Assembly: GCA_052034805.1 (NCBI GenBank)
Contig: JBPOID010000005.1
Coordinates: 1-48,983 of the forward strand
DNA: 48,983 bases
Direction: 5' to 3'
Source: Candidatus Tayloriibacteriota bacterium
GTDB taxonomy: Bacteria; Patescibacteriota; Minisyncoccia; Phycocordibacterales; PALSA-1337
Shown here one piece after another: positions 3,018-19,943 of this stretch. The notes beneath the pieces are model-generated. The model was not told the origin of the DNA, did not search any database, and saw only the letters and a program-made list of their open reading frames with translations. The translations under genes and the position numbers were made by a program. Positions within the stretch are counted from its first letter, which is position 1; each line of letters begins with the position of its first letter.

Positions 3018-3033
3018 TTACGCAGATCTGATC

Positions 3034-3576: not shown

Positions 3577-3654
3577 TTAAATTAACTTCCCCGCCTTCAC
3601 CACATGCTCAACCAGCGTATGTGTATACCCCATTTCGTTACTGTACCACGCTAG
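3577..3654 (-). pseudogene. copy 3 of a GAPDH-type 3'-end remnant
   Basis: Minus-strand translation LAWYSNEMGYTHTLVEHVVKAGKLI*. Similarity to the GAPDH C-terminus stops at about 3655; the upstream MPKITENS is unrelated. Confidence 0.65.
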
Positions 3655-3816
3655 CGAATTTTCCGTTATTTTTGGCATTGGCTTAAGTATAACATGAAAT
3701 TTTTTTTGAAATCATCCCGCCGCCCGTCTTCTGAAGCAACAATTTTTGCGACCTCAAAAGGCGAGCGATGGATGTGCTATTCTGTTGTCAACGTCCTTGT
3801 GTATCATCATAAACAA

Positions 3817-3838
3817 ACGCTTGTTTAATAGCAAGCGT
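3817..3838 (-). terminator. intrinsic terminator after the integrase / small basic ORF
   Basis: acgcttg (3817-3823) pairs with caagcgt (3832-3838) around an 8-nt loop. On the minus strand it is followed by ttgttt and overlaps the TGA of the small ORF. Confidence 0.4.
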
Positions 3839-3981
3839 CAGAATACGCCCTGTTTTAGGGCTTTATTTCGTCTTTTCTTACCACTCAACTTCCCCATTCT
3901 GCTGAAGTGTTTCTTGCCGTATTTGCGGACTGTTGTCGATCCGCCTTTTCGGCCAAGCTGTTGTGCCGCTTTATTTTTCAC
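3838..3981 (-). CDS. possible 47-aa lysine/glycine-rich basic protein (KGG-repeat-like)
   Basis: My translation from GTG 3979-3981: VKNKAAQQLGRKGGSTTVRKYGKKHFSRMGKLSGKKRRNKALKQGVF*. It is in the same frame as the integrase, separated only by its TAA plus 8 codons. No clear SD; below the ORF-track size cut-off. Confidence 0.3.
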   Translation of the reverse strand: MKNKAAQQLGRKGGSTTVRKYGKKHFSRMGKLSGKKRRNKALKQGVF

Positions 3982-4005
3982 CCACTTATTATAACAAACG
4001 ATTGT

Positions 4006-5013
4006 TTAGCAGTGAATAGCCCTCGTTCTGGGTATTTTATATTTTTTTGCTCTCTGATTTCTCGGAACATTTTTAAATGCGTCATATCGTCTCTGCAAAT
4101 CTGGACCGGTCATCATAGTGTATATCATGGAACTCTCAAGACTCGAGTGCCCGAGAATATTTGACACATCTGAATTTGATCCGCCTTTGTTCACAATATC
4201 TCGTCCCATAAAATGTCTCATCGAGTGCGCATTCAATGTGGGTATGCCTGCACGATTGGAATTTGTGCGTAGCAACTCAGCAACACCAACAACCGTCATT
4301 CTTTTTCCTCTTGTCGCATTCTGACCACACTTTGATATGGATACAAACAATGCATCCAAATCCTCAAAAGTGAAAAGCTGATACAGATGCTTTCTTTTCT
4401 GCACCCATCTTTTCAGAAGTGCATTTGTGCTTGGAGTCCAAAATATTTCTCGTATCGGCCGACGGCCGCGGGACTTCTCTGTTTTAATAAGCGCCGTTCT
4501 CTTGTTAAAATCGAGATCGCTTACATTGAGAGCTGTTATTTCTCCGTTTCTAGCACCAGTGTCCCATATGAGAGAAATCAAAGCGCGATTTCTTAAGTGG
4601 TGAGGCTTGTTGTCTTTTGGTATAGAGTTGATGAGTTTATTGAATCCCTGCACAGTGGCAATGCGGGGAATATTGTATTCCTTTCTTGGTGTCGGTATGA
4701 GAGCCTCATTGATTACGTTGAATTTTTGCAGATTATAAAATTCAAAGAATTTTTTGAGACCGAGTGTGACAATGATGATGCCATTTCGTTTCCATCCCAG
4801 ATCCTTCATCATATTCAAATAGCTCATGATGTCATTGAGAGTAATGTTTTCGATATGAGGATTACGCAGGTACAGGCAAAAAATCCTCAATACCTTGTCG
4901 TATCTCTTTACAGTATGACCGGAGACTTTGATCTGTCTCCAACCACTAAATTGATCTATGGCATCTTTGAAAAGCATATGTGCCAACCAAAAAGCCCACT
5001 CGATGCTACTCAA
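4006..5013 (-). CDS. tyrosine recombinase / phage-type integrase (XerC/D-like)
   Basis: ORF track. Catalytic residues are visible: R in DTGARNGEI, HSMRH (H-x-x-R), and LGHSSLESSMIY (His and Tyr nucleophile). The listed start is TTG at 5011-5013; ATG at 4975-4977 (MLFKD...) is an alternative. Confidence 0.9.
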   Translation of the reverse strand: MSSIEWAFWLAHMLFKDAIDQFSGWRQIKVSGHTVKRYDKVLRIFCLYLRNPHIENITLNDIMSYLNMMKDLGWKRNGIIIVTLGLKKFFEFYNLQKFNVINEALIPTPRKEYNIPRIATVQGFNKLINSIPKDNKPHHLRNRALISLIWDTGARNGEITALNVSDLDFNKRTALIKTEKSRGRRPIREIFWTPSTNALLKRWVQKRKHLYQLFTFEDLDALFVSISKCGQNATRGKRMTVVGVAELLRTNSNRAGIPTLNAHSMRHFMGRDIVNKGGSNSDVSNILGHSSLESSMIYTMMTGPDLQRRYDAFKNVPRNQRAKKYKIPRTRAIHC

Positions 5014-5389: not shown

Positions 5390-6406
5390 TCAATCCAGAC
5401 TTTTTCGCATTTCCTTCAGGAACCCGATTACCTCGGTATTTAGGGCAGGTAGAGCCTCATTTGCACCCACTTTTATCGGTATAGAAACCCTTGGATGGAT
5501 TCCCAGAAGCTCCCCCATCACGATACTTCGACCACTTTCTTTGCTGATACGGTTGAACAGGTCGATTGCAACATTCAGGAAGGTGACTGATAGCTCCCTA
5601 GCATTCTCGGCAGGCATGCTTGTCCACTTTTCCATCATACCGAATGGCAGAATGTATGGGTAAGCCAAGCTGTGACCTTCTGATGTCTGGACCGGTGCGT
5701 AGCTATGGGCTACATGTTCACCAACTACACGTCCACATCCGGGAGCGAACGGGATGAGGTCGCGATCGGCAATCCACTCAAACAGATTCTCGAAGGCGTG
5801 AATGATCACGAGCTCGCCTTTGAAGGCCTGTTCAATGACTGCCTTAGCCCCGACGTCGCAGAACCCGATTATAACTGTCACGACTTTGACACCACGCCGC
5901 TCTAGCTCCTTGAGTATGTAGAGACAAGTGTTACCTCGGAATGCTCCCTCTTTGGCAAGGATCACCGGACGACCGGCAATCTTGAGTGCCAAATCATCCA
6001 GTTGTCTGTCGAGGTAATTGAATCCGGGACGCGGACCGTAACCGAACATCTTGCCTTCTGTATTGAACAGTCGGTTAATGCTTAGGTTAAGACCTTCCTG
6101 ATTTGGATTCAAATCATCCATCTCAGAGCAGGTGACGAGAACCGCATGCTGATTATTCACAGCGATACGTTTATGAACCTGCTCCCAGATTTCAAGCCTG
6201 AGCTTATTCTTATCGACGGGGTGAATCGCGTTATTCGGAAACGCGCGAGTTACCCTCTCGAGAAGACTTTGGCGCAGATGCCCGAATATCGGATCATCCG
6301 GATTAGGGACAATCAGACCTTTCGATCGGAACGACTGTAGACTGCTTGCTAAGTCAAAGGAAACCACGCAGGTTCCCTGATGAGCTACCGGACTGGCAGA
6401 TTGCAT
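5390..6406 (-). CDS. phosphoribosyltransferase-like protein with a degenerate PRPP loop; otherwise unrecognised
   Basis: ORF track; GGGAGG SD 5 nt upstream. GRPVILAKEGAFRGNTCLYILKELERRGVKVV resembles by eye the PurF-type PRPP-binding loop (G-K-R-V-V-L-V-D-D-S-I-V-R-G-T-T), but the acidic DD pair is KE. No Ntn-glutaminase N-terminus. Confidence 0.55.
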   Translation of the reverse strand: MQSASPVAHQGTCVVSFDLASSLQSFRSKGLIVPNPDDPIFGHLRQSLLERVTRAFPNNAIHPVDKNKLRLEIWEQVHKRIAVNNQHAVLVTCSEMDDLNPNQEGLNLSINRLFNTEGKMFGYGPRPGFNYLDRQLDDLALKIAGRPVILAKEGAFRGNTCLYILKELERRGVKVVTVIIGFCDVGAKAVIEQAFKGELVIIHAFENLFEWIADRDLIPFAPGCGRVVGEHVAHSYAPVQTSEGHSLAYPYILPFGMMEKWTSMPAENARELSVTFLNVAIDLFNRISKESGRSIVMGELLGIHPRVSIPIKVGANEALPALNTEVIGFLKEMRKSLD

Positions 6407-6495: not shown

Positions 6496-6813
6496 TTATT
6501 TTTCCTCACCCTTGAGCCGTTCTATCATCATCTTGTAGCCTCCACATCCTTCTTTCAACCATCGGTTGATCTTGGTTATTGTCACTGGAGATTCCCCCGT
6601 TTCTTCCTGAATTTGCGTGAATGGCATGCCGGCATATAATTTCTTAGCGACTTCCCATCGCATGGCGAATTCACGAAGATCCCGTTCACTCATGAGATCA
6701 CGAAAAAATGCCCTGAGTTCATCTTCATTCTTAAGCGACAAAAAAGCCTTGATCAAATCAGGAGATTTTTTCTCAAGCTCTGCCCATATTCCATTTTTTT
6801 CTTCTTCAGTCAT
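6496..6813 (-). CDS. YerC/YecD-family Trp-repressor-like DNA-binding protein
   Basis: ORF track. LRAFFRDLMSERDLREFAMRWEVAKKLYAGMPFTQIQEETGESPVTITKINRWLKEGCGGY matches the YerC/YecD TrpR-like HTH pattern. Confidence 0.75.
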   Translation of the reverse strand: MTEEEKNGIWAELEKKSPDLIKAFLSLKNEDELRAFFRDLMSERDLREFAMRWEVAKKLYAGMPFTQIQEETGESPVTITKINRWLKEGCGGYKMMIERLKGEEK

Positions 6814-7254: not shown

Positions 7255-8925
7255 CTATATAAACTTACCCGTCAACATTGCGGACCATTGCTGATGTGGA
7301 TGCAGGGCGACAGGTTTGATGTCTCCCAATCGCTGACCCAATGCAGTGCAGGTAGTTAGATAGACTTGGAATGTATCTTGATTAGGGTCGATCAAATACA
7401 TCTTGCAATGCCCGAGCTGTTCTAACCGACGGCAATAGTCATAGTGGAAGTTTTCCCGAAAGGCAGATTCAATTTCTTGATTCAAATCCCTCAGTACACC
7501 ATCCTCAACGACAGCGCCGTTTACAAACTGAATGAACAATGTATATTCAACGACCTGTACAGATGATCGTTCGGGCGCCACCATCCAGAAACTGGGTTGA
7601 TGACTGATCCTCGAGATCACCTGTCTTATGACGTTGCTGACAAACTGCTCATTGAGCTTCTCTCCGCAGATATCGACAACTTTGTCTTGCTTGCCGACAA
7701 ATCGTATGAGCGGACACTCTGCTTCAAATCCCAAGACCTCGACTACATCGTTGAGCCGGTATCGATAGAGACCGCCACTTGTGGTGACAATCACCGAATA
7801 CTTTTTTCCAACTCCAAGTTCGTGCGCCAACCTGATCGTTTTACTCTCAACTTCTTCAAACTCGAAAAAATGGGAGTTAATCGACAAGGCTGATGCTTCG
7901 CCTCGAAGCGGAAATGACACGAATGCCTCAGTCGCAATCAAACCTTTCGGCTGGATTGTAACATTCGGAAAGTAAGTCCGAAGTTGCTTTACAGCTTCTT
8001 CTGAATTACCATGTGTCCAACAACTGATCAATTTCAGATTTGGCCAGATCGCCTCGTAAAGACATCCGTCTTTTCTGTCTCGGATTCTTTCAAGTTCCTT
8101 AGCGCGTCCCACCGACTTTTTCAGACTATTGCGGATCAACACATCAACTTCAGGTATAACCCCGAGATCAATCGACATCGAGCCAGTCCGTATATCCTCA
8201 ATGAGTTGGTTGAACCATGTCTCAAGAGGACTAAGGAATAAGGTCGCAAAAGTGGGATTCCAGATGGATACCCACGAGAGTGACTTTTCCTGTAACAGGA
8301 AACGAAGCGTGGCATACCTGAACGCATCCATGTCTTGGATGAGAGCAAGCTCCGACGGGGTTGCCATCACAGTTCCGAGAACCCATTGCGTGAGTTTCCC
8401 GAAGTATGATCGCTCGTCGTCAAAGCCTATTGGAATGCCGCCAGATGAGTACCGCTGTCTCTCACCGATCGGAGTGACCGACCAGTAGGCTTTTCCAGCT
8501 AGTATCCGCAAATGGTCTCTCATGAGATGGTACATCCACGGATCGATTCCTTCTTGGAATTCGCTGACGAGTGATGCTGTGTAAGGCACCAGCTTTGATG
8601 CGCTTGTCGAGCCACTCGATACGCCGAATCTCTGAACTGAATCTGCGGTCAGCACATTTTGTGCGCCAGCCGCTATCTCATCAATGTAGGGTTGAACGTC
8701 TTCGTAAGACTGCACTGGTACAGCCCTTTGAAATGCCGCGACAGAATCAATCTTTCCGAAGGAATGCGTTTGACCGAAGTCGGTCTCTGCATTCCGTGAA
8801 AGAAGTCGCTTCAGGATTTTAGCCTGAGTTGCTTCAACATTTTTGCTCGCTCGCCTCCAGATCCTTGTCCTCACAGCTGAGTACAAGAACCATAGGAGGT
8901 TCGCTGTGAGGACTTTTATTTTCAT
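7255..8925 (-). CDS. GH3-family acyl-acid amido synthetase (adenylate-forming)
   Basis: ORF track; AAGGAAA SD. FGVSSGSTSASKLVPYT (AMP-binding S/T-rich loop) and SGGLYRYRLNDVVEVLGF (GH3 signature GLYRYRLGD) are present. Confidence 0.85.
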   Translation of the reverse strand: MKIKVLTANLLWFLYSAVRTRIWRRASKNVEATQAKILKRLLSRNAETDFGQTHSFGKIDSVAAFQRAVPVQSYEDVQPYIDEIAAGAQNVLTADSVQRFGVSSGSTSASKLVPYTASLVSEFQEGIDPWMYHLMRDHLRILAGKAYWSVTPIGERQRYSSGGIPIGFDDERSYFGKLTQWVLGTVMATPSELALIQDMDAFRYATLRFLLQEKSLSWVSIWNPTFATLFLSPLETWFNQLIEDIRTGSMSIDLGVIPEVDVLIRNSLKKSVGRAKELERIRDRKDGCLYEAIWPNLKLISCWTHGNSEEAVKQLRTYFPNVTIQPKGLIATEAFVSFPLRGEASALSINSHFFEFEEVESKTIRLAHELGVGKKYSVIVTTSGGLYRYRLNDVVEVLGFEAECPLIRFVGKQDKVVDICGEKLNEQFVSNVIRQVISRISHQPSFWMVAPERSSVQVVEYTLFIQFVNGAVVEDGVLRDLNQEIESAFRENFHYDYCRRLEQLGHCKMYLIDPNQDTFQVYLTTCTALGQRLGDIKPVALHPHQQWSAMLTGKFI

Positions 8926-8935
8926 TTGGTTTCCT

Positions 8936-9661
8936 TTATTGTTTTACCGATCTGAGCAGTCGTGTCATTGCCGGGGCGAAGTTACCTTGGTTCACCGGCG
9001 CAACACAGACGAGCTCTGTTCCCGAAAGATATGTTCGATTCACTTCGAGAAAGAATCGTATATGTTCGTCAGGTTCTGATGGTGGCACCGCGTCGATGCT
9101 GCCTGGGATAAGGCGCTGTGTCTCCTTTGAGAACATGATGAGTCCCCGATTGGGGTCATAATCTCTAGGATATTTAACCTGCCCGAATGCATCCATGACC
9201 TCCTTGTCGGTTTTTGAGACGTCCGCATCATACTTCGGTGCGAAATGCCTGAAAAAGAATGGCAGAATCTTGTAGGTCCGCCACCCCTTCGAGATCAGAA
9301 TATAATATATTTCCTGACCTAGAGAGGTATGCAGAGCCTTCATGAAGTAGCGCCCGATTTCAATACCGAAGCCAGTGCTACTCCTATATTCCGGAAGGAT
9401 TGTAGTATCCCCCGAAAACACAGCTTTCACTTTTCTTCCTTCGATAGGAAGATTGAGCATCATGAGCGTCGAAAAGCCCACTATCTCTCCATCATGAGTC
9501 TCCTTGCGGAGTAGCATGACAGCTTCTTTTTCTTCAAGGTCTCGGATGAAATCTTGACGACTCACACCGAGAAACTCGAGGGAAAGGAGACCGAACATGG
9601 TAGCCCTCTCAGAGGGCGTAAGCTCGGCAATCTGCTTGGTCTGACTGAATATCTTTGACAT
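8936..9661 (-). CDS. GNAT-like acyltransferase (family uncertain)
   Basis: The ORF track gives 8936..9748. I prefer ATG 9659-9661 (MSKIFSQ...) because of a perfect AAGGAGA SD 5 nt upstream. VFSGDTTILPEYRSSTGFGIEIGRYF resembles the GNAT motif A region. Confidence 0.6.
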   Translation of the reverse strand: MSKIFSQTKQIAELTPSERATMFGLLSLEFLGVSRQDFIRDLEEKEAVMLLRKETHDGEIVGFSTLMMLNLPIEGRKVKAVFSGDTTILPEYRSSTGFGIEIGRYFMKALHTSLGQEIYYILISKGWRTYKILPFFFRHFAPKYDADVSKTDKEVMDAFGQVKYPRDYDPNRGLIMFSKETQRLIPGSIDAVPPSEPDEHIRFFLEVNRTYLSGTELVCVAPVNQGNFAPAMTRLLRSVKQ

Positions 9662-9753
9662 AGGTTTCTCCTTGGTTGAGGTTTTCAAATAACAAATCTC
9701 TAGGGCTATTCCTACCACAAAAATGTGCTTTAGTAAATGTCCAAGCATAAAAA

Positions 9754-9789
9754 AGAGCCTTGCTGTATTTGTGGTACGAACAAGGCTCT
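9754..9789 (-). terminator. terminator/attenuator-like hairpin inside the biosynthetic cluster
   Basis: 9-bp stem agagccttg/caaggctct with an 18-nt loop, starting 1 nt after the stop at 9791. On the minus strand it is followed by a T-run (complement of the A-run at about 9749-9753). Confidence 0.45.
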
Positions 9790-9790
9790 G

Positions 9791-10897
9791 CTACAACGTT
9801 GCAACCTCGAGATGAGCAATCCTTCCGTTTTTGGGAAGCATAGCCTTTTCTCCTGGCCAATGAACGAGGTATATTCTACTTTTAAGCTCTCGCAACGCCA
9901 GACGGCGAGCGACAGTTGAAAGCTTGTTTTCCTCGGCTAGACCGACAAGGAGATAATCATGACCGCGACCCGACCAATCCCGGCACGCTTGGCTTATAAG
10001 CGATTCAAAGACTTCAGTATTGTCGTCTTCGGCACTCACAAACGAGGCGTGTACTGACCGAATCATTTCCCCGATGCTCGGTAGCATCGGAAAACCTCTC
10101 AATCGGGCAATCCCGTTATAGAAAGGCTTGACTGCTTTCATTTGTGCAGAGTAACCAGTGACGATTGTCTGCTTGAATGATTGTTGATCCCAGACACCGA
10201 GAGTTCCTACGACCTTGCCTCTCTTTTTGTAGACATACAAGTCCTTTTTAGAGAAATTCGGAAGTAGTCTAGTTCCACCAGATAAGTCATCCAGCGTGTA
10301 GGCAGGAGCAAACTGGTGACGACCATTCCATTCACTCAGACACTTATGCGCTTGTGGCAAAGTATCTTCGTTGCAGGATAGAACCTCGTGTCGTAACTTA
10401 CGTAACACCCTCTTTCGGATGGGTATCAAATAGGTTACGAACATTCCCACGGGAACATATGTTGGCATCCCTGCTCGTCCGCTTTCGAGGATTTGCTGGG
10501 CGTACCTGTTCTCGTCGAGAATCGTCGTGAAGTAGTAAGGCACTTTTCCATCGCCGTGAAGGCTTTGGAGAAACTTGTACCCTCTGACCAATGTCATACT
10601 ACTTCGAACTTCGGGAAGGAGTCTAAGACTGCTCAGGTAGCCAACGGTTTTTTCCTCACCGTCGACATATAACTTTCGAACACTTCGACCACCGATGCCG
10701 GTGATCGTGCCGTCATTCTGATCTTGATAGACCAGTGTTTGAGACCCCACGCTTCCAGCTTGTTCGGCTATGAAGAATGAGGGTTCGCGGCTGAACGCCA
10801 ACGATACATTACCAGGCATATGGGCTTTGCGGAGAACGGCACGCAATGCGCCGTCCTCCGCTTCGCCCGCTAGCTTGAAACCGAATCTGTTGTTCAT
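9791..10897 (-). CDS. hypothetical 368-aa protein, possibly a two-lobed acyltransferase (FemX/tandem-GNAT-like) fold
   Basis: ORF track; ATGA overlap with the upstream rSAM gene (10894-10897). The function is guessed from size and context only; no motif recognised. Confidence 0.7.
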   Translation of the reverse strand: MNNRFGFKLAGEAEDGALRAVLRKAHMPGNVSLAFSREPSFFIAEQAGSVGSQTLVYQDQNDGTITGIGGRSVRKLYVDGEEKTVGYLSSLRLLPEVRSSMTLVRGYKFLQSLHGDGKVPYYFTTILDENRYAQQILESGRAGMPTYVPVGMFVTYLIPIRKRVLRKLRHEVLSCNEDTLPQAHKCLSEWNGRHQFAPAYTLDDLSGGTRLLPNFSKKDLYVYKKRGKVVGTLGVWDQQSFKQTIVTGYSAQMKAVKPFYNGIARLRGFPMLPSIGEMIRSVHASFVSAEDDNTEVFESLISQACRDWSGRGHDYLLVGLAEENKLSTVARRLALRELKSRIYLVHWPGEKAMLPKNGRIAHLEVATL

Positions 10898-12306
10898 GCA
10901 AGCACACTTTCCCTTTGAACAACTGACACGGGTTGTGGCCGTTGAATGCCTTCTTCAGGCATCCAAATCGGCTGAGGCCGTTCAGGCAGATCGCCGAGTG
11001 GTAGTCTGTCCTTCTGTCCAATTTCCTTCCGGAGAAGGTAGTTGAGCCAAAAGTATCCGCCAGCCTTCGACAACGTAGAGCAGTTACCGACGATGTTTCC
11101 AGCTCTTTTTAGGATACCAGGGTAGCTGTAGAACTTCTTTCTGGCTGCAATGCAGCCTTCATGGAGTTCGTCGGCTGTCATGTTACGCGGTGTAAATGGC
11201 GCATCTCCAAAACGAAAACTTGGAGAGAGCCACCACGCTTCATCAGTCAGCCTGCTTTCGTTCTGGAACTGCTGGTACAGCGGAGTCCCAGGGAACGGGA
11301 TGAGCGGATTGAACGCCCCAATAAAGATCCCGAACTCGAGTGCCGCTTCCACAGTTCTTTGGATATCGTCAGCCGATTCTGAATCGTAGCCGAAGATAAA
11401 CGTGCCGTAGATGGCAATGCCATAGCTGTGCATTTTTTTGATCAACTCCTTGTAGTTTCCCAGTTTGGTGTTGAACTCCTTATTCATGAGCTTCAGTGTA
11501 TCCGCACGAAGGGATTCGAAGCCCACTAGCACTCCCAGACAGCCGCTCAAAGCCATTGCTTCAAGCAGTTCGTCATCTTTGGCCATGGTAAGCGATCCCT
11601 GACCCATCCACTTGACCTTAAGTGGAGCAATTTCCCTGCACAGCTGCTTTGCATGCTTGGGATTCCCAACAAAATTGTCTTCTACGAAGAAGGCAGTCTT
11701 GTGGCGTATTGATCCAACGTCCGCGACAACGCTGTCGATGGGACGTGGGTGGTAGTGCGAGGATGTCGCTGCAGCGATCGAACAAAAGCTGCAACAGAAT
11801 GGACAACCTCGTCCAGTCTCGACATTGCTCATAGGCAGATACTGCCGCGCTCCGAAGATCTCTCTCCGGGGCATGACATACTGGTATGGCTCCGTTTTAT
11901 TCTGGACGTAGCGGCGTTTGAGAGCACCTCGTTCTGCGTCACGGATTACTGTTTCCCAGAGAACTTCCGCGTAGCCGATAAGAATGCTGTCGGCATAGCG
12001 TTGCGTTTCATCAGGAAGCAGCATCACATGATAACCGCCGAGAATAGTTCTCACTCCTCTCTTGCGGTATTCAGCACAGATTTCATAGGCACGCTTGGCT
12101 GTATAGGTTTCGATGGTTACAGCGACAAGATCAGTAGGCTGATCGAAGTCGATTGTTTCCATCCGCTCGTCAAAGTAGGCGAGCTCCACATCGGCGGGCG
12201 TAAGGCCAGCCAACGTTGCGATGGTTAACGGCTCCATCTGCCATGTCCTCACGTATTCGGTCCGCGACTTGCGACCAACGTGAGGGGTAATCAATGTCAC
12301 TTTCAT
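10894..12306 (-). CDS. cobalamin-binding (class B) radical SAM enzyme, COG1032-like, copy 2
   Basis: The ORF track gives a start at 12390. I prefer ATG 12304-12306 (MKVTLITP...), which has an AAGGAG SD and an ATGA overlap with the upstream gene. The motif is GRGCPFCCSFC (CxxxCxxC), with an N-terminal B12-binding-like Rossmann segment and a DUF4070-like C-terminus. Confidence 0.85.
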   Translation of the reverse strand: MKVTLITPHVGRKSRTEYVRTWQMEPLTIATLAGLTPADVELAYFDERMETIDFDQPTDLVAVTIETYTAKRAYEICAEYRKRGVRTILGGYHVMLLPDETQRYADSILIGYAEVLWETVIRDAERGALKRRYVQNKTEPYQYVMPRREIFGARQYLPMSNVETGRGCPFCCSFCSIAAATSSHYHPRPIDSVVADVGSIRHKTAFFVEDNFVGNPKHAKQLCREIAPLKVKWMGQGSLTMAKDDELLEAMALSGCLGVLVGFESLRADTLKLMNKEFNTKLGNYKELIKKMHSYGIAIYGTFIFGYDSESADDIQRTVEAALEFGIFIGAFNPLIPFPGTPLYQQFQNESRLTDEAWWLSPSFRFGDAPFTPRNMTADELHEGCIAARKKFYSYPGILKRAGNIVGNCSTLSKAGGYFWLNYLLRKEIGQKDRLPLGDLPERPQPIWMPEEGIQRPQPVSVVQRESVLA

Positions 12307-13700
12307 ACTGTTACTCCTTCCAATGTTAAGGTTGTCGGTTGATGCGCTACGGAATAATCCGGAGCATTGAACCACGATGTCCCCTCGCAAGGGATAGGCA
12401 TAAATTTGGGATACTTCCTGGCGTACAGGTTATATCCGAGATTCGTACCGATCGATGTAGCGAGGATAAGCGGGTTTAGAGACGCGGCAGATGTCATTAT
12501 CCGCCGTGCGATTGAGGTCATCTTGTACGCCTCGCACCAGACCCTCTTTGTGCCTTCGTAAAGGCGCTCGGGAGTCATGCCTTTCGGTTGAAAGACAACG
12601 TGCTGGCCGTCATACCACTCCCAGTCCTTGCTGATGATGCGGTTTTCCTGATCAAGCTGGCGATACAGTGGTGTCCTCGGGAACGGAGTTGCGATCGCAA
12701 AGCGCGGCAAATCAATGCTGGCCTTGAAAACGAACTCAAGCGTCTCATCAAACACTCCCTCAGTATCTCCATCGATACCGAACACGAAACAGCCGTTAAT
12801 GGCGATCCCATGATCGTGGAGCATTTTAATGCGCCACAGGTTGTCGGCTGGTTTCTGCCAGTATTTTCCCATAGCCTTCAAAGACTTAGGGTTCTGCGAT
12901 TCCAGACCAATCAAGAGACCCCGACAGCCGCTTTTGGCAGCACGCTTCACTAACTGCGGGTTATCCGTGATGTTAAGAGTTGCCAGACCGCCCCAGTATT
13001 TACCGAGCGGAGCAAGCGCGTCACAGAGCTGGCCGAAGTATTCCTGATCAGAGGTAGGCGAGAGATCAATGAGAATGAACGTCTTCCCTGGAAATTCTGC
13101 AACTTCCCGAGCGACATCCAGCGGATCGCGTTGATACTGTTTGGGCCATGCCGTCGGCACGACGCAAAATGTACAGCGATAGACGCAACCACGAGTCGCC
13201 TGCGCAACATTCATGGTCGTGTATTTATCCTTTCTCAACAATTCCCGTCTCGGACGAGGATACCCGTCCATCGTGATTGGCTGCCTGTCATAGCGCTTCC
13301 TGAGCTTTCCTGCAACAAAGTCACGCAGGAGTTCAGGCCACACTTCTTCGGCATAACCATAGACAATGGCGTCTGCATGACGTTCAGCTTCTTCGGGACA
13401 CAGGGTGATATGAACTCCGCCAAGAACGACAGTGATGCCTCGATTCCGAAGAATTCGGCTATACCGGTATGCCTTGGGGGCGTTTCCAGTGATCACTGTG
13501 ATCCCGACGATGTCTGCATCAATAGTTTGAGGATCAAAATCCTCATTGCCTTCATCAACACATCGGACTGACGCATTGAGTTCCGGCGGGATGAGAGCGG
13601 CGAGAGTTGTCAGCGTAAGCGGTGCATACCGCAGACGCTGATCAAACGCGCCATCCTTTGCATAACGAGTCGACTGCGGCATAAGTAATACGATATTCAT
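12303..13700 (-). CDS. cobalamin-binding (class B) radical SAM enzyme, COG1032-like, copy 1
   Basis: ORF track; AAAGGAGA SD; RGCVYRCTFC (CxxxCxxC). Clearly paralogous to copy 2 (VVLGGVHITLCPEEAERHADAIVYGYAEEVW versus TILGGYHVMLLPDETQRYADSILIGYAEVLW). Confidence 0.85.
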   Translation of the reverse strand: MNIVLLMPQSTRYAKDGAFDQRLRYAPLTLTTLAALIPPELNASVRCVDEGNEDFDPQTIDADIVGITVITGNAPKAYRYSRILRNRGITVVLGGVHITLCPEEAERHADAIVYGYAEEVWPELLRDFVAGKLRKRYDRQPITMDGYPRPRRELLRKDKYTTMNVAQATRGCVYRCTFCVVPTAWPKQYQRDPLDVAREVAEFPGKTFILIDLSPTSDQEYFGQLCDALAPLGKYWGGLATLNITDNPQLVKRAAKSGCRGLLIGLESQNPKSLKAMGKYWQKPADNLWRIKMLHDHGIAINGCFVFGIDGDTEGVFDETLEFVFKASIDLPRFAIATPFPRTPLYRQLDQENRIISKDWEWYDGQHVVFQPKGMTPERLYEGTKRVWCEAYKMTSIARRIMTSAASLNPLILATSIGTNLGYNLYARKYPKFMPIPCEGTSWFNAPDYSVAHQPTTLTLEGVTV

Positions 13701-13914
13701 GACAAATCTCCTTTTGTTTGTTGTGTGAGTTGTAAAGGAACAAGAAAATGTACAGGTTCCATCTATAACATACCACAGAATGATTTATTTATGTAGTCAA
13801 AGTCAAAAATAATCCCAAGATGCTTTATCCACTTTCTTGCATAGCCCTTTAGAACAATTCATTGTATAATTAATCAATATTTAATGGCGAATTTTAATAA
13901 AATAAATTAATAAT

Positions 13915-14343
13915 ATGCAATCAAAAACATCGTTAGGGATATTCAAGGCGTTGGCTTGGTTTGTATCGATTTATCATTTCATACTTGGAATACTAGCAAT
14001 ATTTGCTCCGGCAAGTATGGTCGTGCCAATAGTAAATACTATCTATGGTGTTAATCCGAACATAGATGCTCAATTTCTGTATATGGTCAAGTTTATCGGT
14101 GCCTACATGATCATGTTCGCCGTTGTAACTGCAATTCTTGCATATAAACCAATCGAGTATAAAAAATTAGTATGGATACCAATTGGTCTATTTGTTATTC
14201 GTATTATTGAGAGACTTTTATTTTTTGGTCTTCTAAGTGAAGCATTCAATATAACTTTTGCACAAGATCTTCGAGTGATGATACCTATTACAGTTCTTGC
14301 AATAGCTCTATATTATTTCAGACCACGAACTTCAATAGTGTAG
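13915..14343 (+). CDS. four-helix small membrane protein (paralog of 15643..16056)
   Basis: ORF track. Shares H-[FL]-x-x-G-x-L-x-x-F-x-P near the N-terminus and P-x-x-Y-K/x-x-W with the other copy. Confidence 0.65.
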   Translation: MQSKTSLGIFKALAWFVSIYHFILGILAIFAPASMVVPIVNTIYGVNPNIDAQFLYMVKFIGAYMIMFAVVTAILAYKPIEYKKLVWIPIGLFVIRIIERLLFFGLLSEAFNITFAQDLRVMIPITVLAIALYYFRPRTSIV

Positions 14344-14367
14344 GTAATGAAGATGTTCCTAAGTAAA

Positions 14368-14387
14368 AGAGACGCTATGGCGTCTCT
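14368..14387. terminator. bidirectional terminator between convergent genes
   Basis: agagacgc-tatg-gcgtctct, flanked by aaaa on the 5' side and tttt on the 3' side. It lies between 14343 (+) and 14392 (-). Confidence 0.6.
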
Positions 14388-14391
14388 TTTA

Positions 14392-15633
14392 CTATACAAT
14401 TCTAGGATTACCATATTTACGCACCGATCGAAGAAGTAGTGGTACGAGTGAAGATATAATGATCAACAAACCTGACCAAAGAAAAACATGTCCAAGATAC
14501 TTTTCCATCACATGTCCTGCTATTAGTTCTGATACAGGATTCAATCCAATTGATGAGAAAATGAGTATGCCCATCGTTCGGCCCATCATTTCAGGAGGAG
14601 TATTCTTTTGCACTATTGTAATGAACGAAATCATTACATACCCAGCCGCAACTGCGCTTAAGAAACTTACAAGCATAAACTGTGGTGTCGTCTGCGCATA
14701 AGCGAACAATGAAAAGAAAACTCCAATCAAACTGGCTATCACCAACAGATAGATTGAAGGATTTCTTTTGGGAGTTAAAAATCCTGCCAAGGCATACCCA
14801 ACGAGAGCACCAATTCCCCATGCAGAAACAATAAATCCAAAGGAATATGCGCCTGCCAATTGATTTTTCGCTATGAGTGGCATTCCCACAAGAAAGGGAC
14901 CAATGACGCAGAAATTTACTAATGTTGCCGCAACTAAAATATATCTGAGTCCTTTATGCTTCCAAACAGAAATCAAACCCTCCTTAAGCATTCCCGCAAA
15001 TTTTTCCGTACTCTCAATAAATGAGGTGCTTTTTATCAAGCGCAATGTCATCAATGAAACAATAAATGTCAGAGCATCGACGAGCATAGCAATACCGATT
15101 CCATTATATGCATGTGTCCTATATTCAATAAAACCAATAAGCGATCCGACAATAAACGGGCCAATAAATTGAGATAGTTGTGTCAGTCCTTGGATGAGAG
15201 TGTTTCCGATTCCAAGCACCTCCTTTGAAACAATGTGTGGGACAAGACTAGATCGAGCTGGTATAAAAAAGGCGTCAAAAATGCCAAATAGTAAGGCGAT
15301 TGTGTAAATCATCCATAGTTCAATTTTGCCAGTAAGAATAAGAAATGCTAATAAAAGTACCACACAAAAACGCGTAGCATTTGAGACGAGCATGACCGCT
15401 CGAGGAGAAAAACGATCAATAACTGTCCCACTCACGAACATGAGAATTGCTCTTGGAAAACCAGAAAGAGCAAGTACTGTTCCTACTGCAATACTACTCC
15501 CAGTCATTCTGGCGACTAACCATGCGAGACCAACAAATGTAAATTGGTCACCAATATTTGAAATTGTCTCACCCCAAAAAAGTAGTTTGAAATTTCTATT
15601 CCTGAATAATGTTTTGAGTCGTCCTTTATCCAT
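14392..15633 (-). CDS. MFS transporter (DHA3/EntS-like efflux type)
   Basis: ORF track; about 12 hydrophobic helices. The N-terminus FRNRNFKLLFWGETISNIGDQFTFVGLAWLV is typical of this MFS subgroup. Confidence 0.8.
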   Translation of the reverse strand: MDKGRLKTLFRNRNFKLLFWGETISNIGDQFTFVGLAWLVARMTGSSIAVGTVLALSGFPRAILMFVSGTVIDRFSPRAVMLVSNATRFCVVLLLAFLILTGKIELWMIYTIALLFGIFDAFFIPARSSLVPHIVSKEVLGIGNTLIQGLTQLSQFIGPFIVGSLIGFIEYRTHAYNGIGIAMLVDALTFIVSLMTLRLIKSTSFIESTEKFAGMLKEGLISVWKHKGLRYILVAATLVNFCVIGPFLVGMPLIAKNQLAGAYSFGFIVSAWGIGALVGYALAGFLTPKRNPSIYLLVIASLIGVFFSLFAYAQTTPQFMLVSFLSAVAAGYVMISFITIVQKNTPPEMMGRTMGILIFSSIGLNPVSELIAGHVMEKYLGHVFLWSGLLIIISSLVPLLLRSVRKYGNPRIV

Positions 15634-15642
15634 AATAGTTGG

Positions 15643-16056
15643 TCATCTATAATAGACAATCTGTGCAATAATTATTGAGACGCATAGTAATATAAGACCA
15701 ACATGCGAAAGATTTCTTTTTCGAGCAAGTTTTAAAGATAATGTTGCTTCTTTCTGAAATTTCAAGCGATATACAAGTCTCATCAAAAGTAGAATAACCA
15801 AGGCACCGAGTATCCAAATATATTTTTTGGGATCAAGGACTGGAAGCAGTCCTACAAGTCCTGCAAAGATACCGAGAGCACCCCACGGTTTAAGTATGAT
15901 GAGATATTCCTTTGTTTCTGGAATTTCTGCACCGAATAACTTCGAGTATGTCTTTACGGCTCTCCCAGGGAAAAACATTCCCAAGGCTCCTGTAAAAAGA
16001 TGGTCTGCTGCAAGCAGAACCAAATTCAGAGCAAAAAGAAACTTAATTATAATCAT
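15643..16056 (-). CDS. four-helix small membrane protein (paralog of 13915..14343)
   Basis: The ORF track lists 15643..16074 from a TTG. ATG at 16054-16056 (MIIIKFLF...) is more likely. Confidence 0.6.
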   Translation of the reverse strand: MIIIKFLFALNLVLLAADHLFTGALGMFFPGRAVKTYSKLFGAEIPETKEYLIILKPWGALGIFAGLVGLLPVLDPKKYIWILGALVILLLMRLVYRLKFQKEATLSLKLARKRNLSHVGLILLCVSIIIAQIVYYR

Positions 16057-16101
16057 TACTAAATAATACAACAAAATAGAAATTTTTGGTATACTTGGAC
16101 T

Positions 16102-16944
16102 ATGAAAATATTTATGGGGTGGATAAAAAGAATTCTTTACTTTCTTCTTGCCTCAGTTGCACTTATCATATGTATTCTCGTGATCGTGCATTTTTTAACA
16201 AAGCCATCTAATGATCGAAAATGGAATAATGATCAGAATATTCTTCCATACGCCGAAATCAATGATGATCTTATATCCGTACACAACATTAGAAATTTCT
16301 CATACACCTCGACTATAGACTATACTCCAAATTACTATGATAAAGTATTCGACATAAATAAACTCAAAAAGGTCTGGTATATTGTAGAACCATTCTCGGG
16401 CATCCCAGGTTCTGCCCATACATTTTTAAGCTTTGAATTCTCAAATAATCAATTTGTCGCTATTTCGGTCGAAATCCGCAAAGAAAAGGGAGAAACATAC
16501 AATCCAATCAAGGGACTTTTAAACCAGTATGAATTGATGTATGTGGTTGCAGACGAACGTGATGTCATTAAACTTCGCTCTAATTATCGCAAGGATCTGG
16601 TATATGTATATCCAGTAAAAACAACAGTTGAAAAAACACGTGCTTTATTTTTGGACATGATTGAGCGAGTAAATAATCTGAAAGATCACCCTGAATTTTA
16701 TAATACGATCACAAATACTTGCACTACAAATATCGTGAGACATGTAGACAAAATTACACCTAATAGAGTGCCTCTATTTAACCTACGTATTCTCTTGCCA
16801 GCAAATTCTGACAAGCTAGCGTACGAGCTTGGTTTAATTGATACTGATCTGCCGTTTGAGGAAGCGCGAACGAAGTACTTCATAAATGATCGTGCGTTGA
16901 AATATGCAACTGATCCTGATTTTTCTTTAAAAATAAGACCATAA
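16102..16944 (+). CDS. DUF4105 (Lnb N-terminal periplasmic domain) family protein
   Basis: ORF track. Pattern NDRKWNNDQNILPYAEI...ISVHNIRNF...SAHTFLSFEF...SVEIRKEKGE...YELMYVVADERDVIKLRSNYR...YNTITNTCTT matches the DUF4105 hallmark blocks. Confidence 0.75.
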   Translation: MKIFMGWIKRILYFLLASVALIICILVIVHFLTKPSNDRKWNNDQNILPYAEINDDLISVHNIRNFSYTSTIDYTPNYYDKVFDINKLKKVWYIVEPFSGIPGSAHTFLSFEFSNNQFVAISVEIRKEKGETYNPIKGLLNQYELMYVVADERDVIKLRSNYRKDLVYVYPVKTTVEKTRALFLDMIERVNNLKDHPEFYNTITNTCTTNIVRHVDKITPNRVPLFNLRILLPANSDKLAYELGLIDTDLPFEEARTKYFINDRALKYATDPDFSLKIRP

Positions 16945-16955
16945 AAAAGATTTCT

Positions 16956-17207
16956 ATGAATATAACATTGTATGCAACAATTGCAGGAATACTGACCTCA
17001 ATAAGATTAATTCCGCAAGTTATAAAAAGTTTGAAGACAAAAAGCACTCATGACCTATCACTATATTTTGTTGTGATATGTCTATTCCAAGCAATCTTTC
17101 TTATTCTTTATGGAGCTAGCAAACCAGATAATGCTATTCTATATATGAATATATTACCTCTGATATGTTCAGCCATTCTTCTGTATCTGAAGTACAAATA
17201 TAGGTAA
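16956..17207 (+). CDS. SemiSWEET / PQ-loop sugar transporter
   Basis: ORF track; 83 aa with three helices and the PQ motif in IRLIPQVIKSLKTKST. Confidence 0.75.
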   Translation: MNITLYATIAGILTSIRLIPQVIKSLKTKSTHDLSLYFVVICLFQAIFLILYGASKPDNAILYMNILPLICSAILLYLKYKYR

Positions 17208-17267
17208 AGTAGCAGAAAAATCATTATTAATATTGCATCAATATAGTTAGAATGAATGTCTATAATT

Positions 17268-19943
17268 TTATCTAGGCAATGATGTTAACTCTCCAAAATC
17301 CTTTGGCCTATATTTCTCCCACTCCTCTTGCTTCACATACAGCATATGATATTTAATTCTATGCTGTTGCTCATTTGCATCATCGCACCACTGCGCTAAA
17401 CGCTTGATTTTCTCAATATCGTCGAGATCCTCCCGGCCTTTGGTTTCCACGATATACACGGTCTTCTCATCGGTCTTTATAATGAAATCTGGATAGTAGT
17501 ATGAGATTGAACCGCTTGCGTTCTTATAGTCGATTTTGAAATGAACCTCATAATAATTCTTGGCGAAAGAAATGACGTCGTCTGATCGCTCGAGAAAATC
17601 TGCGAATTCAAGTTCAAATTGGCTGTCTCCAACGATCTTGTTGAACACACTCTTTTTTGGTATCAGATACGATTTATCGTTAACCACGAACGGTCGGCTA
17701 CTGGAGAGTTTGATGTAATTCTTGAGCTCGGTATCTCCCACATCCTGGACGGTAAGGTCGTTAATCGCTTTTTTGAACGACTCAATGATCGTTTTCTTGG
17801 CTTCAGTTTCCGACAGGTTCCGAAGAATATTGGCGTCCATAAGGTCGACTGACTTATCGAAGAGATGGTGCTGAATGAAATCCTTTACCTTACCGAAGAG
17901 GATATCGTAGCAACCGAAAAGCCGGAGCTCACGCATGATCGACTGGACGAAAAAGCCCACGGCGCTCTGGTAGCTCGGTTCGATCGAGCTTTCGAGTACG
18001 GTTACATGGTGTACCTTACCGTCTATAACTTCCTGGAAGACAATTTCCTTCTTTTCTTCAGCGCTAAATTCCTTCAGTTTGACTTTTGCGTGCCTGAAGT
18101 CGTCAATATCAAGATCGTTTAGATTCTTATACTCACGCTGAATACGCGGAGTCAGTATCGGAAGTTCTATGTCTAATTTCTCGACATCCTTTTTCGGATT
18201 AGCTGAGTCAATTTCAATGACAATCGGAGTGATGGGATTCGAATTTCGATCCATCTTGCGCTTCTCAAGCTCGACGCCCTCTGCCTTGATGGACTCCACG
18301 AATTCCATGAAGGCTGGCGTACCGATAACACTCACATATTCCTCGATATCATCCCTGCCGAAGAACATACGGCGCAAACCTCGGCCGAGAGTTTGCTCCG
18401 GCAGTATATTTGAGGCGGCGGCATAAGCACGCAGACCGACGATCGTGGTCACATTTTTCACATCCCATCCTTCCTTGAGCATGAGCACCGAGACGATCAC
18501 CTTATACGGACTCTCGATGCTATCGATAGTATTAGCCTGTTCGCGTAGCCGCTTCAATTCCTCATCATTCTTGCCAGTCACCGTCTCGGAAATCTCACCG
18601 CTTCTGTTCGTGTGAATGGTCATTACGGCGCCCTTGAGCTCGGGATATGTCTTTTCGAGATATCCAGCCACGTCGTCACAGTTCTTGGTATCGTCGGTCA
18701 TTATGAAAAGGATTGACTTTTTTCCGGTCGGTTCAAGCTCTTTGTATGTCTTCCTCCACTCCTCTACACCGAGATTGATAAAGTCCTCATATTTCTCAGT
18801 AAAAAGCGAGCTCTGTTTTTCGACGAGTTTTGCTCGACTAGCCTGATCCGGCAGAACCGGATTCTTTACTACTCGCTGATGGATAGCCTCCACGAGAGGA
18901 TAGTCGGAAATGGTCTGCACGAATATGGAGCCATTGTTTCTCTTTGGCGTTGCGGTGACATCGATTTGAAGCGACAATTTCTTGCCCTTTTGCAGGAGCT
19001 TGTTATGAATATCTTGAATGGATTTGAACCATGCCATCTTGTCATCATGAATGTGGTGCGCCTCGTCGTTGATGACCACGAGCTCGTCAATGTCTCGCAC
19101 GATTTCTCCGAGGTCAACCATGGATTCATTCGTCTTTGTCACTGGCTTTGAGCCGAGGAAGTAATCGGATGTGTCCTCGTCATTAGCACTGGAATCGTTC
19201 ACATCACTCTCGAATACTCGATGAATATTGGTCAGGAATATGTTACCCGTATCAGATATCGTACCTACAGCGTCCTGGAGATGGAGTGTAATTTGGAAGT
19301 CATCCTGCCAATTCTGGCCTTGGTAGCCACTATCGGGCAGGATCGGATCCTGGTAGAAAATCTTCAAGCCCTCGAAATCGTTTTTGATGCGTTCGAGCAC
19401 GATGATATTCGGTGTGATAAGCAGGAAATTCTTCGACAAGCCTGAATTCTGTTCGTAGAGCTTGTGGAAATATGACCAAGCGACAAGCAGACTCATGACC
19501 TTCGTCTTTCCACTTCCGGTTGCCATCTTTATAACGAATCGGAGCCATTCTTCCACGAACATATTCGGGCTCAATCTGCCGAGGCTGTCATATTTGATGA
19601 GATCGTACTTATTCTCAACGCCGGCAACCTCGTAAAGCCATATTACTGTTTCAACGGCCTCTCGTTGAGCGAAATAATATCTAAATGGTACGGCTATGCC
19701 TTTGGAATCAAAGATGGTGTGAGGTTCAACAAACCACCAGTTAAGAAGTGCTTGCGATGTAACGCTTGCCCCCGCATACTTGTTATCACGCCACTCCTTT
19801 ACCTGCTTGCGGAGCTCTGGCACTAGTGGTGGAAGTAGCTTCTCATATCCATGCTCACGAAGAGCTTCGTCAGCCGGAAACCACCTTATGCTGGGATCAA
19901 GTATTTCAAATGGTGAGATTGGAAAGTCTTTATGAAGTGCCAT
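17268..19943 (-). CDS. res: type III restriction enzyme, Res subunit (SF2 helicase + PD-(D/E)xK nuclease)
   Basis: ORF track. MATGSGKT (motif I), NDEAHH (motif II), VTATP (III), LKEGWDV, and a C-terminal YYPDFII...YIVETKG nuclease motif. Starts 4 nt after the mod stop. Confidence 0.9.
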   Translation of the reverse strand: MALHKDFPISPFEILDPSIRWFPADEALREHGYEKLLPPLVPELRKQVKEWRDNKYAGASVTSQALLNWWFVEPHTIFDSKGIAVPFRYYFAQREAVETVIWLYEVAGVENKYDLIKYDSLGRLSPNMFVEEWLRFVIKMATGSGKTKVMSLLVAWSYFHKLYEQNSGLSKNFLLITPNIIVLERIKNDFEGLKIFYQDPILPDSGYQGQNWQDDFQITLHLQDAVGTISDTGNIFLTNIHRVFESDVNDSSANDEDTSDYFLGSKPVTKTNESMVDLGEIVRDIDELVVINDEAHHIHDDKMAWFKSIQDIHNKLLQKGKKLSLQIDVTATPKRNNGSIFVQTISDYPLVEAIHQRVVKNPVLPDQASRAKLVEKQSSLFTEKYEDFINLGVEEWRKTYKELEPTGKKSILFIMTDDTKNCDDVAGYLEKTYPELKGAVMTIHTNRSGEISETVTGKNDEELKRLREQANTIDSIESPYKVIVSVLMLKEGWDVKNVTTIVGLRAYAAASNILPEQTLGRGLRRMFFGRDDIEEYVSVIGTPAFMEFVESIKAEGVELEKRKMDRNSNPITPIVIEIDSANPKKDVEKLDIELPILTPRIQREYKNLNDLDIDDFRHAKVKLKEFSAEEKKEIVFQEVIDGKVHHVTVLESSIEPSYQSAVGFFVQSIMRELRLFGCYDILFGKVKDFIQHHLFDKSVDLMDANILRNLSETEAKKTIIESFKKAINDLTVQDVGDTELKNYIKLSSSRPFVVNDKSYLIPKKSVFNKIVGDSQFELEFADFLERSDDVISFAKNYYEVHFKIDYKNASGSISYYYPDFIIKTDEKTVYIVETKGREDLDDIEKIKRLAQWCDDANEQQHRIKYHMLYVKQEEWEKYRPKDFGELTSLPR

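Follow-up and report, generated by a model that had tools for sequence, protein, structure and literature searches.

The stretch of DNA considered here (the window) comprises positions 1–48,983 of contig JBPOID010000005.1 from a Candidatus Tayloriibacteriota bacterium, and the region under study, positions 7255–13700, contains five open reading frames (ORFs) which are co-directional and all located on the minus strand. In the order in which they are read they encode two radical S-adenosylmethionine (SAM) enzymes termed rSAM1 and rSAM2, an acyltransferase-like protein of 368 aa (p368), a second, smaller acyltransferase (GNAT241) and an amido synthetase of the GH3 family. These genes represent a single instance of a hitherto uncharacterised biosynthetic cassette which is widespread and horizontally mobile, and its enzymology is a new combination of known superfamilies.

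In detail, rSAM1 (12303–13700, 465 aa) encodes a class-B, i.e. B12-binding, radical SAM enzyme with the cluster motif CVYRCTFC, and rSAM2 (10894–12306, 470 aa when counted from the ATG) a paralogous class-B enzyme in which the motif reads CPFCCSFC. The third gene, p368 (9791–10897), serves as the marker gene of the cassette and encodes the tandem-GNAT acyltransferase-like protein. It is followed by GNAT241 (8936–9661), which encodes a single-GNAT acyltransferase of 241 aa, and by GH3 (7255–8925), whose product of 556 aa is an acyl acid amido synthetase, i.e. an adenylating acid-amine ligase, with the motif GLYRYRLNDVV. The junctions of the first three genes both consist of an ATGA, as can be read directly from the sequence: at 12306–12303 the stop codon of rSAM1 overlaps the start codon of rSAM2, and at 10897–10894 the stop codon of rSAM2 overlaps the start codon of p368. 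GNAT241 is preceded by the Shine-Dalgarno sequence AAGGAG upstream of its ATG at position 9661, and a spacer of 10 nt separates its stop codon from the ATG of GH3.

A hairpin with a U-run (9749–9789, minus strand), which resembles an intrinsic terminator or an attenuator, lies between p368 and GNAT241. It is composed of a 9-bp stem 3′ of the p368 stop codon (9789–9781 paired with 9763–9755) and a subsequent T-run (9754–9749); folded as RNA it reaches -17.5 kcal/mol, which corresponds to z = -3.6 in comparison with shuffled sequences. Hairpin and U-run are retained in three related loci of bacteria of the candidate phyla radiation (CPR), L004–L006, with one compensatory change from G-C to A-U (related cassette loci from other genomes that were used for comparison are numbered L001 and so on). 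The hairpin was not reported by a program scan for terminators because its loop exceeds the limit of that scan. An earlier note on this DNA, drawn up from the letters and the ORF translations, had described the five co-directional genes, both ATGA overlaps, the hairpin with its T-run, the Shine-Dalgarno sequence of the 241-aa gene and the spacer before GH3, and all of these features could be verified.

Families and folds of the encoded proteins

Both radical SAM proteins contain the CxxxCxxC motif of the [4Fe-4S] cluster inside a Radical_SAM domain (PF04055), with 57.6 bits for rSAM1 and 52.1 bits for rSAM2 at a Pfam gathering cut-off of 29.5 bits. For the B12-binding domain (PF02310, gathering cut-off 32.1 bits) rSAM1 passes with 43.6 bits whereas rSAM2 stays below the cut-off with 22.1 bits; rSAM1 additionally matches DUF4070 with 22.3 bits. 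An alignment of the two proteins, which starts at residue 1, extends over 408 aa with 33% identity (E 3e-71), and therefore the N-terminal domain is common to both. Among the rSAM2-type orthologues, precomputed PF02310 matches exist in L022, L026, L029 and L030 and a weak one in L032, and they are missing in L001, L021, L024 and L031. The predicted B12-binding domain is thus a real one in rSAM1 according to the hidden Markov model (HMM), and in rSAM2 according to its homology to rSAM1. The cluster motifs and the paralogy of the two enzymes had been recognized correctly in the earlier note; of the cobalamin-binding N-termini that it attributed to both of them, the one of rSAM1 is found by Pfam directly, the one of rSAM2 only through the alignment to rSAM1.

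The closest solved structure for rSAM1 is 9ccb, the protein glutamine C-methyltransferase QCMT, and for rSAM2 the closest ones are the class-B cobalamin enzymes AprD4, QCMT, CysS, TsrM and TokK. None of the NCBIfam equivalogs was reached by either protein, the best scores being 99.4 bits for rSAM1 (BchE, cut-off 481) and 90.3 bits for rSAM2 (HpnJ, cut-off 578). Partial similarities far below threshold were obtained to BchE, HpnJ, PhpK, ApyD, the radical SAM enzyme of ladderane lipids, QCMT and HpnR, and on account of the scores the identification of either protein as BchE, HpnJ, PhpK, QCMT, ApyD or the ladderane enzyme was discarded. The cassette enzymes share with the known class-B enzymes (GrsA/GrsB, Gmm, HpnR/HpnJ, CysS, TokK and QCMT) the N-terminal B12-binding Rossmann domain, the CxxxCxxC core and the DUF4070 tail, and with GrsA/GrsB and the iterative methylases the presence of several paralogues in one cluster. 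They differ from them in that their scores are at most 99 bits at equivalog cut-offs of 251–750 bits, and in that the rSAM1-type and rSAM2-type proteins form orthologous groups which are specific to this cassette. Some class-B enzymes, namely GrsA/GrsB and Gmm, act on the tails of lipids (PMC11214058).

The marker protein p368 has no match to any Pfam (E <= 0.01) or NCBIfam family. An AlphaFold2 model based on an alignment of 28 sequences has a predicted local distance difference test (pLDDT) of 90.8 and a predicted template modelling score (pTM) of 0.89, and consists of two GNAT-like halves. When this model was compared to the PDB by Foldseek, N-myristoyltransferases (NMTs) ranked on top with E ~3e-13, a probability of 1.00 and a template modelling (TM) score of 0.59–0.66 over ~400 columns, and the tandem GNAT MAB_4324 matched about as well. 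On the strength of the model, p368 can confidently be predicted to be a tandem GNAT whose fold is nearest to that of NMT, which agrees with the acyltransferase-like character that had been suggested for the 368-aa protein before.

NMT uses its own C-terminal carboxylate as catalytic base. The C-terminus of p368 ends with E/D-[VIL]-[AG]-x-L-stop at the same position in 18 of 18 orthologues, which stem from Patescibacteria, Chloroflexota, Planctomycetota, Acidobacteriota and one metagenome-assembled genome (MAG) of the Woesearchaeota, and Leu368 shows no or almost no variation in the two p368 alignments (A1 and A3). Such a fixed C-terminus would be consistent with an NMT-like carboxylate base. 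Apart from the tandem-GNAT fold of ~370 residues and the conserved end position, there are differences to NMT: p368 has no sequence relation to it, with neither a Pfam NMT match nor a match to an NMT chain at E <= 10 when a profile of 28 members was run against the PDB sequences (noise only), and it is a prokaryotic protein which is linked in an operon to radical SAM and GH3 genes. A word-indexed search yielded 180 relatives of p368, all of them termed "hypothetical" or without name and all from MAGs and metagenomes, and when a profile was searched exhaustively, 3,476 representative clusters were obtained at E <= 1e-3, of which 1,388 remained at E <= 1e-30.

For GNAT241 the only Pfam indication is Acetyltransf_9 with 17.6 bits, below the cut-off of 25 bits. 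Its AlphaFold2 model (pLDDT 93.0) shows one GNAT domain and a C-terminal extension of ~100 aa, and Foldseek relates ~140 residues of it to Eis-like, NatD and AAC(2') GNATs with E values of 6e-6 to 2e-4; a profile search against the PDB sequences returned noise only. GH3 on the other hand passes the cut-off of 23.6 bits with all three Pfam domains (GH3 209.3, GH3_M 65.0 and GH3_C 24.6 bits) and matches the structures of plant GH3.6 and JAR1 with E ~1e-24, so that its earlier assignment as a GH3-type adenylating amido synthetase is well founded. The translation contains SSGSTSASK, a Ser/Thr-rich P-loop ending in Lys, and GGLYRYRLNDVV, a motif of the YRxxD type, both of which are read as the nucleotide-binding motifs of the family, in view also of the serine mutagenesis in the OlsH study. 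The sole NCBIfam match of GH3 is OlsH (NF052613) with 67.9 bits at a cut-off of 620 bits, the best stretch being residues 18–129.

Aminolipid N-acyltransferases, namely GNATs of the OlsB/OlsF/GlsB type and N-acyl amino acid synthases, make N-acyl amino acids, which is the first step in the synthesis of aminolipids (reviewed in PMC12971839). GNAT241 and p368 resemble them as GNAT-fold acyltransferases, whereas both remain below all curated acyltransferase thresholds, and the cassette lacks an O-acyltransferase of the PlsC type. OlsH of Singulisphaera acidiphila, the only characterised bacterial GH3, is a GH3-like lyso-ornithine lipid synthetase which adenylates a free fatty acid with ATP and joins it to ornithine, and its homologues outside the Planctomycetes may use other amino acids (PMC12493201). 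The OlsH/OlsI system and the cassette have in common a bacterial GH3-family enzyme encoded in an operon with lipid-tailoring genes, and the cassette also occurs in Planctomycetota, where it is placed beside BtaA/BtaB-like genes, which would be genes for phosphorus-free lipids. In contrast to OlsH/OlsI, the GH3 of the window scores 67.9 bits at the OlsH cut-off of 620 bits with a mainly N-terminal match, and the cassette has neither the alpha/beta-hydrolase OlsI nor OlsG but two GNAT-fold proteins and two to six B12 radical SAM enzymes. Neither in the window nor at the loci used for comparison does an alpha/beta-hydrolase belong to the genes of the cassette. Membership of the OlsHI pathway was rejected on the grounds of the OlsH HMM score and the missing OlsI.

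More generally, neither a curated family model in NCBIfam nor a pathway described in the literature searched on GH3, B12/radical SAM, GNAT, NMT and aminolipids matches the cassette, so that the earlier view of an orphan cluster can be maintained; a connection of GH3 with radical SAM enzymes is not made in any of the papers searched. Radical SAM enzymes are mentioned neither in the OlsH paper (PMC12493201), which does not mention B12 either, nor in a 2026 review on aminolipids, and the literature searched on B12 radical SAM enzymes and membrane lipids offers lipid-tail precedents only and no such cassette.

Distribution, variants and horizontal transfer

About 25 independent loci were examined, 17 of them from species-representative genomes and the others from contig look-ups. 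The presence of genes was determined by tblastn with the proteins of the window, and distant members were checked individually. Exact copies of the GH3 and p368 of the window were not present in the contig index; gene context was taken from relatives. At every locus with enough DNA (~25) an rSAM1-type and an rSAM2-type gene, p368, a GNAT of ~240 aa and GH3 occur together, and GNAT241 is paired with both GH3 and p368 at all of these loci; the contig of L028 is too short to be informative. The co-occurrence persists down to p368 identities of ~30% (L029 and L030). The carriers belong to at least six phyla of both prokaryotic domains and include Patescibacteria (Kaiserbacteria, Saccharibacteria, Paceibacter, Taylorbacteria and other CPR bacteria), Ktedonobacteria and other Chloroflexota, Planctomycetota, Acidobacteriota and Omnitrophica as well as DPANN archaea, the latter being represented by two MAGs (Woesearchaeota and Nanoarchaeota), one of which is a 307-kb contig with STT3 and prefoldin genes.

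Gene order is mostly conserved among these loci, and wherever the junction is intact the rSAM2-type gene is located directly upstream of p368. The two are even found as a natural fusion of 817 aa (P0281, L026:10001–12454, also L027:5053–7506), which in L026 belongs to a variant of the cassette that comprises six genes for radical SAM enzymes; three such genes are present in L004, L005 and L029, and four in L016, L017 and L019. In Chloroflexota, GNAT and GH3 are oriented divergently from rSAM1-rSAM2-p368. Because of this split in orientation and of the hairpin at the same junction in CPR bacteria, the cassette is regarded as consisting of two modules, [rSAM1-rSAM2-p368] and [GNAT241-GH3].

Whether the five genes occur together in other genomes, and whether GH3 is accompanied there by paired radical SAM genes, had been put forward in the earlier note as points to be checked, and both are answered positively by these loci. 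We therefore consider a chance adjacency, or the remnant of unrelated pathways without a shared function, to be excluded, with a residual probability that is negligible: ~25 loci from at least six phyla have conserved the set and the order of the genes, and there are, in addition, translational coupling and a case of gene fusion. It is very nearly certain that the five genes work as one functional cassette.

In two long-read MAGs of Chloroflexia (L020:2657–11079 and L008:4066–5591) GH3, and in L020 also rSAM2, is broken up into several ORFs which are separated by unrelated ones, suggesting either a decaying cassette or sequencing frameshifts.

The cassette of the window has a GC content of 0.496, compared to 0.32 in the left flank (1–4005), 0.355 in the right flank (13701–17267) and 0.434 in the whole window, and a tyrosine recombinase similar to XerC, XerD and XerA is encoded at 4006–5013, 2.2 kb from the cassette. 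The GC step and the recombinase agree with the proposal of a foreign, integrase-bearing island made in the earlier note. A search of the window for island boundaries, however, revealed neither a tRNA gene nor att-like direct repeats bracketing the cassette, and the upstream flank with the genes for mem142, mem143, the Lnb_N protein and the PQ-loop protein (see below) shows synteny to other CPR loci. Moreover, cassette and flanks agree in GC content at most of the other loci.

Horizontal spread over evolutionary time is nevertheless clear from sequence comparison, because the copies of CPR bacteria and Chloroflexota are 50–66% identical, because in one CPR MAG (L022:8122–17857) the cassette is inserted between rpsJ (S10) and rplC (L3) and thereby interrupts the normally contiguous S10 operon, and because recombination appears to have taken place within the cassette. 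The L022 copy is rearranged, with one of its radical SAM genes inverted. As for recombination, rSAM1 of L012 (7256–8629) and L024 (7228–8598) is 81–83% identical to the copy of the window but the other four genes are only 39–70% identical, a contrast which suggests recombination or allele exchange within the cassette. Of the earlier proposal of horizontal transfer, the spread over evolutionary time is thus substantiated; the island-borne character of the cassette is supported in part, and a recent insertion of an island at this position of the window would be conjectural.

The rest of the window is rich in mobile elements and contains genes for restriction-modification (type III and Dcm) as well as a prophage-like region. 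A defence-like block (17268–25116) encodes a helicase/endonuclease with ResIII domain (891 aa), an N6/N4 DNA methylase (760 aa), a HATPase_c_3 protein of 580 aa and a C-5 cytosine methylase of 360 aa. The prophage-like region (~25100–48983) encodes a portal protein to which a Mu F-like domain is fused (38401–40596), a tail tube protein (32478–33467) and many other ORFs without family match. In the AT-rich left flank there is a direct repeat of 81 nt with 86% identity (2941–3021 and 3566–3646), each copy of which adjoins the start codon of a small ORF on the minus strand (2529–2936 and 3034–3552). Finally, a Laminin_G_3 (concanavalin-like lectin) domain protein, with a weaker match to the N-terminal receptor-binding domain of clostridial neurotoxins, is encoded at 3–989 and is probably a surface or adhesion protein.

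Neighbouring and accessory genes

Upstream of rSAM1 the window contains mem142 (13915–14343, plus strand), a frequent accessory gene of the cassette, which encodes a small membrane protein of ~140 aa that is read as having four transmembrane segments and has no Pfam match. It is followed by a gene for an MFS_3/EntS-like transporter (14392–15633, minus strand; Pfam MFS_1 and MFS_3), a probable accessory exporter or flippase of the cassette product, and by mem143 (15643–16074, minus strand), an accessory paralogue of mem142 which is likewise read as a protein with four transmembrane segments. Homologues of mem142 are located beside the cassette in L004, L005, L006, L013, L014, L021, L031 and L032, and an iterated search ties mem143 to mem142 and to copies at eight other cassette loci. 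These ~140-aa paralogues are therefore present at nine loci including the window, the carriers being CPR, DPANN and Planctomycetota, and a fragment exists in Omnitrophica; the paralogues are missing at many loci, including those of Chloroflexota and several of Planctomycetota. An MFS gene also flanks the cassette at the Chloroflexota loci and in L026. Farther out in the window (16102–17207) there are genes for a 280-aa protein with the periplasmic Lnb_N domain (formerly DUF4105) and for an 83-aa PQ-loop/SWEET-like membrane protein. The former has homologues in the vicinity of the cassette in L005, the latter in L006.

On the other side of the cassette a 338-aa protein without Pfam or NCBIfam match is encoded at 5390–6406; its GC content of 0.50 is like that of the cassette and unlike that of the flanks, and it has no counterpart beside the cassette at other loci. 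A YerC/TrpR-like regulator gene (6496–6813) is located between this gene and GH3.

At other loci, the neighbours of the cassette vary between lineages, yet they are overwhelmingly membrane or lipid enzymes. Genes of the FA_desaturase family are found near the cassette in L001, L012, L015, L016, L019 and L024, membrane methyltransferases of the ICMT/PEMT type in L021 and L031, and further neighbours are PAP2 proteins, SnoaL/DUF4440 proteins and pairs of Rieske proteins. In two Planctomycetota loci (L016:13567–16630 and L019:13485–16622) an FA_desaturase gene is accompanied by genes for a BtaA-like DUF3419 protein and a BtaB-like methyltransferase of the UbiE type, and these downstream genes form one tightly packed co-directional array with the cassette. 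DUF3419 is the family to which the betaine-lipid enzyme BtaA belongs, and the DUF3419-methyltransferase pair resembles genes of betaine-lipid synthesis. The variant of Omnitrophica contains inserted genes for a PALP enzyme, an M28 peptidase and two radical SAM enzymes that are not of the B12 type.

To look for precursor peptides, ORFs of 18–90 aa from all loci were clustered. No conserved precursor ORF was found beside the cassette, since every small-ORF family shared between loci turned out to be an out-of-frame shadow of a coding gene, and several loci have no intergenic room for a small ORF. This corroborates the earlier observation that the window has no recognisable precursor of a ribosomally synthesised and post-translationally modified peptide (RiPP), and because no conserved precursor ORF adjoins the cassette, a RiPP cluster was rejected as the leading interpretation.

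Putative product and its alternatives

Substrates, order of the steps and product can be proposed from the chemistry of the families involved. GH3 would adenylate a carboxylic acid and condense it with the amine of an amino acid in analogy to OlsH, the acid being most likely a free fatty acid, and would in this way make or extend an N-acyl amino acid. Further acyl groups would be added from thioester donors by GNAT241 and p368, the latter of which may act like NMT, in that its own C-terminal carboxylate would be the base in the transfer of a long acyl chain from a thioester to an amine. The cobalamin-type radical SAM enzymes, of which there are two to six paralogues, would modify unactivated carbons of the chain or the head group, either by C-methylation or by the formation of C-C bonds or rings, and rSAM2 may do so in close physical association, or in a complex, with p368. 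The MFS transporter and the small proteins with four transmembrane segments would handle the product in the membrane. Taken together, the product of the cassette would be a lipid-type N-acyl amino acid, i.e. a modified N-acyl amino acid or an aminolipid, that is made in or at the membrane, and we assign to this interpretation a probability of roughly 0.55. The earlier note had likewise thought of a modified N-acyl amino acid or lipid-like molecule; this product class is strengthened by the lipid and membrane enzymes which neighbour the cassette elsewhere, the product as such being deduced from family chemistry. A more specific version, namely a new lipid route in which an NMT-like p368, using its C-terminal carboxylate and physically coupled to cobalamin radical SAM enzymes, would act together with GH3 to make an aminolipid with C-methyl groups or cross-links from an amino acid and scavenged free fatty acids, appears distinctly unlikely to us.

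Several observations weigh against a lipid-type product. The GH3 protein is far from OlsH and about as similar to the plant enzymes that conjugate auxin and jasmonate, and therefore the acid need not be a fatty acid. The likeness of p368 to NMT is moderate (TM ~0.6), is common to other tandem GNATs and is not accompanied by a profile match in the PDB, and QCMT, the nearest solved relative of rSAM1, modifies a protein and not a lipid. The lipid enzymes in the neighbourhood are accessory and differ between lineages, and the PALP enzyme and M28 peptidase of Omnitrophica fit the chemistry of amino acids or peptides as well as that of lipids. Finally, a cultured carrier of the cassette was not found, and all named homologues are "hypothetical proteins" from MAGs.

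Some of these points would suit a secreted small molecule of non-lipid nature, for example a pseudopeptide or amino-acid conjugate with the function of an antibiotic or signal, which would be assembled by GH3 and GNAT, C-methylated by the radical SAM enzymes and exported by the MFS protein. The EntS/MFS_3-type exporter, which adjoins the cassette not only here but also in Chloroflexota and in L026, could be read in this way, as could the PALP enzyme, a PLP-dependent (pyridoxal phosphate) enzyme of beta-replacement, together with the M28 peptidase; moreover, the solved relatives of rSAM2 include enzymes of antibiotic pathways (AprD4, CysS, TsrM and TokK), and the distribution of the cassette is patchy and reminiscent of horizontal gene transfer, with a variable number of tailoring radical SAM enzymes. 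We consider this product nevertheless rather unlikely, given that the recurrent neighbours are integral-membrane proteins of lipid type (FA_desaturase, PAP2, ICMT/PEMT and BtaA-like) and proteins with four transmembrane segments, that p368 comes closest in fold to an enzyme which transfers long acyl chains, and that the only characterised bacterial GH3 takes fatty acids (PMC12493201).

Very unlikely, in our opinion, is the modification of a protein or peptide, in which the radical SAM enzymes would C-methylate in the manner of QCMT or Mmp10, p368 would N-acylate the N-terminus, and GH3 and GNAT would modify carboxyl or amino groups of a target encoded elsewhere or of the co-occurring small membrane proteins. 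QCMT as best solved relative of rSAM1, the partial NCBIfam matches to the RiPP enzyme ApyD, the fact that NMT works on the N-termini of proteins and the paralogous ~140-aa proteins beside the cassette at nine loci including the window could all be quoted in its favour. The matches to protein- or RiPP-modifying radical SAM equivalogs are however far below their cut-offs, no conserved small ORF or precursor adjoins the cassette, and the ~140-aa proteins are missing at many loci (Chloroflexota and several Planctomycetota). Furthermore, we know of no GH3 enzyme that acts on proteins.

If a lipid-type N-acyl amino acid is indeed the product, this would be only the second role shown for a bacterial GH3 after that of OlsH, p368 would represent the first prokaryotic NMT-like acyltransferase, and the chemistry of cobalamin radical SAM enzymes would be extended to a new class of substrates. 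If instead a secreted metabolite is made, the cassette would define a widespread and unmined family of natural products. The marker p368 stands for a family of ~3,500 representative clusters which has neither a Pfam or NCBIfam model nor a named member and is always linked to B12 radical SAM enzymes and GH3. De novo synthesis of lipids is, as far as is known, largely missing in CPR bacteria, DPANN archaea and Omnitrophica. Should the new lipid route prove true, it would provide these lipid-auxotrophic episymbionts with a self-made membrane lipid, and it would be a new source of geochemical biomarkers in Planctomycetota, Acidobacteriota and Chloroflexota. The manner in which the envelopes of CPR bacteria, DPANN archaea and Omnitrophica are assembled or altered is thus directly testable with a construct of only five genes.

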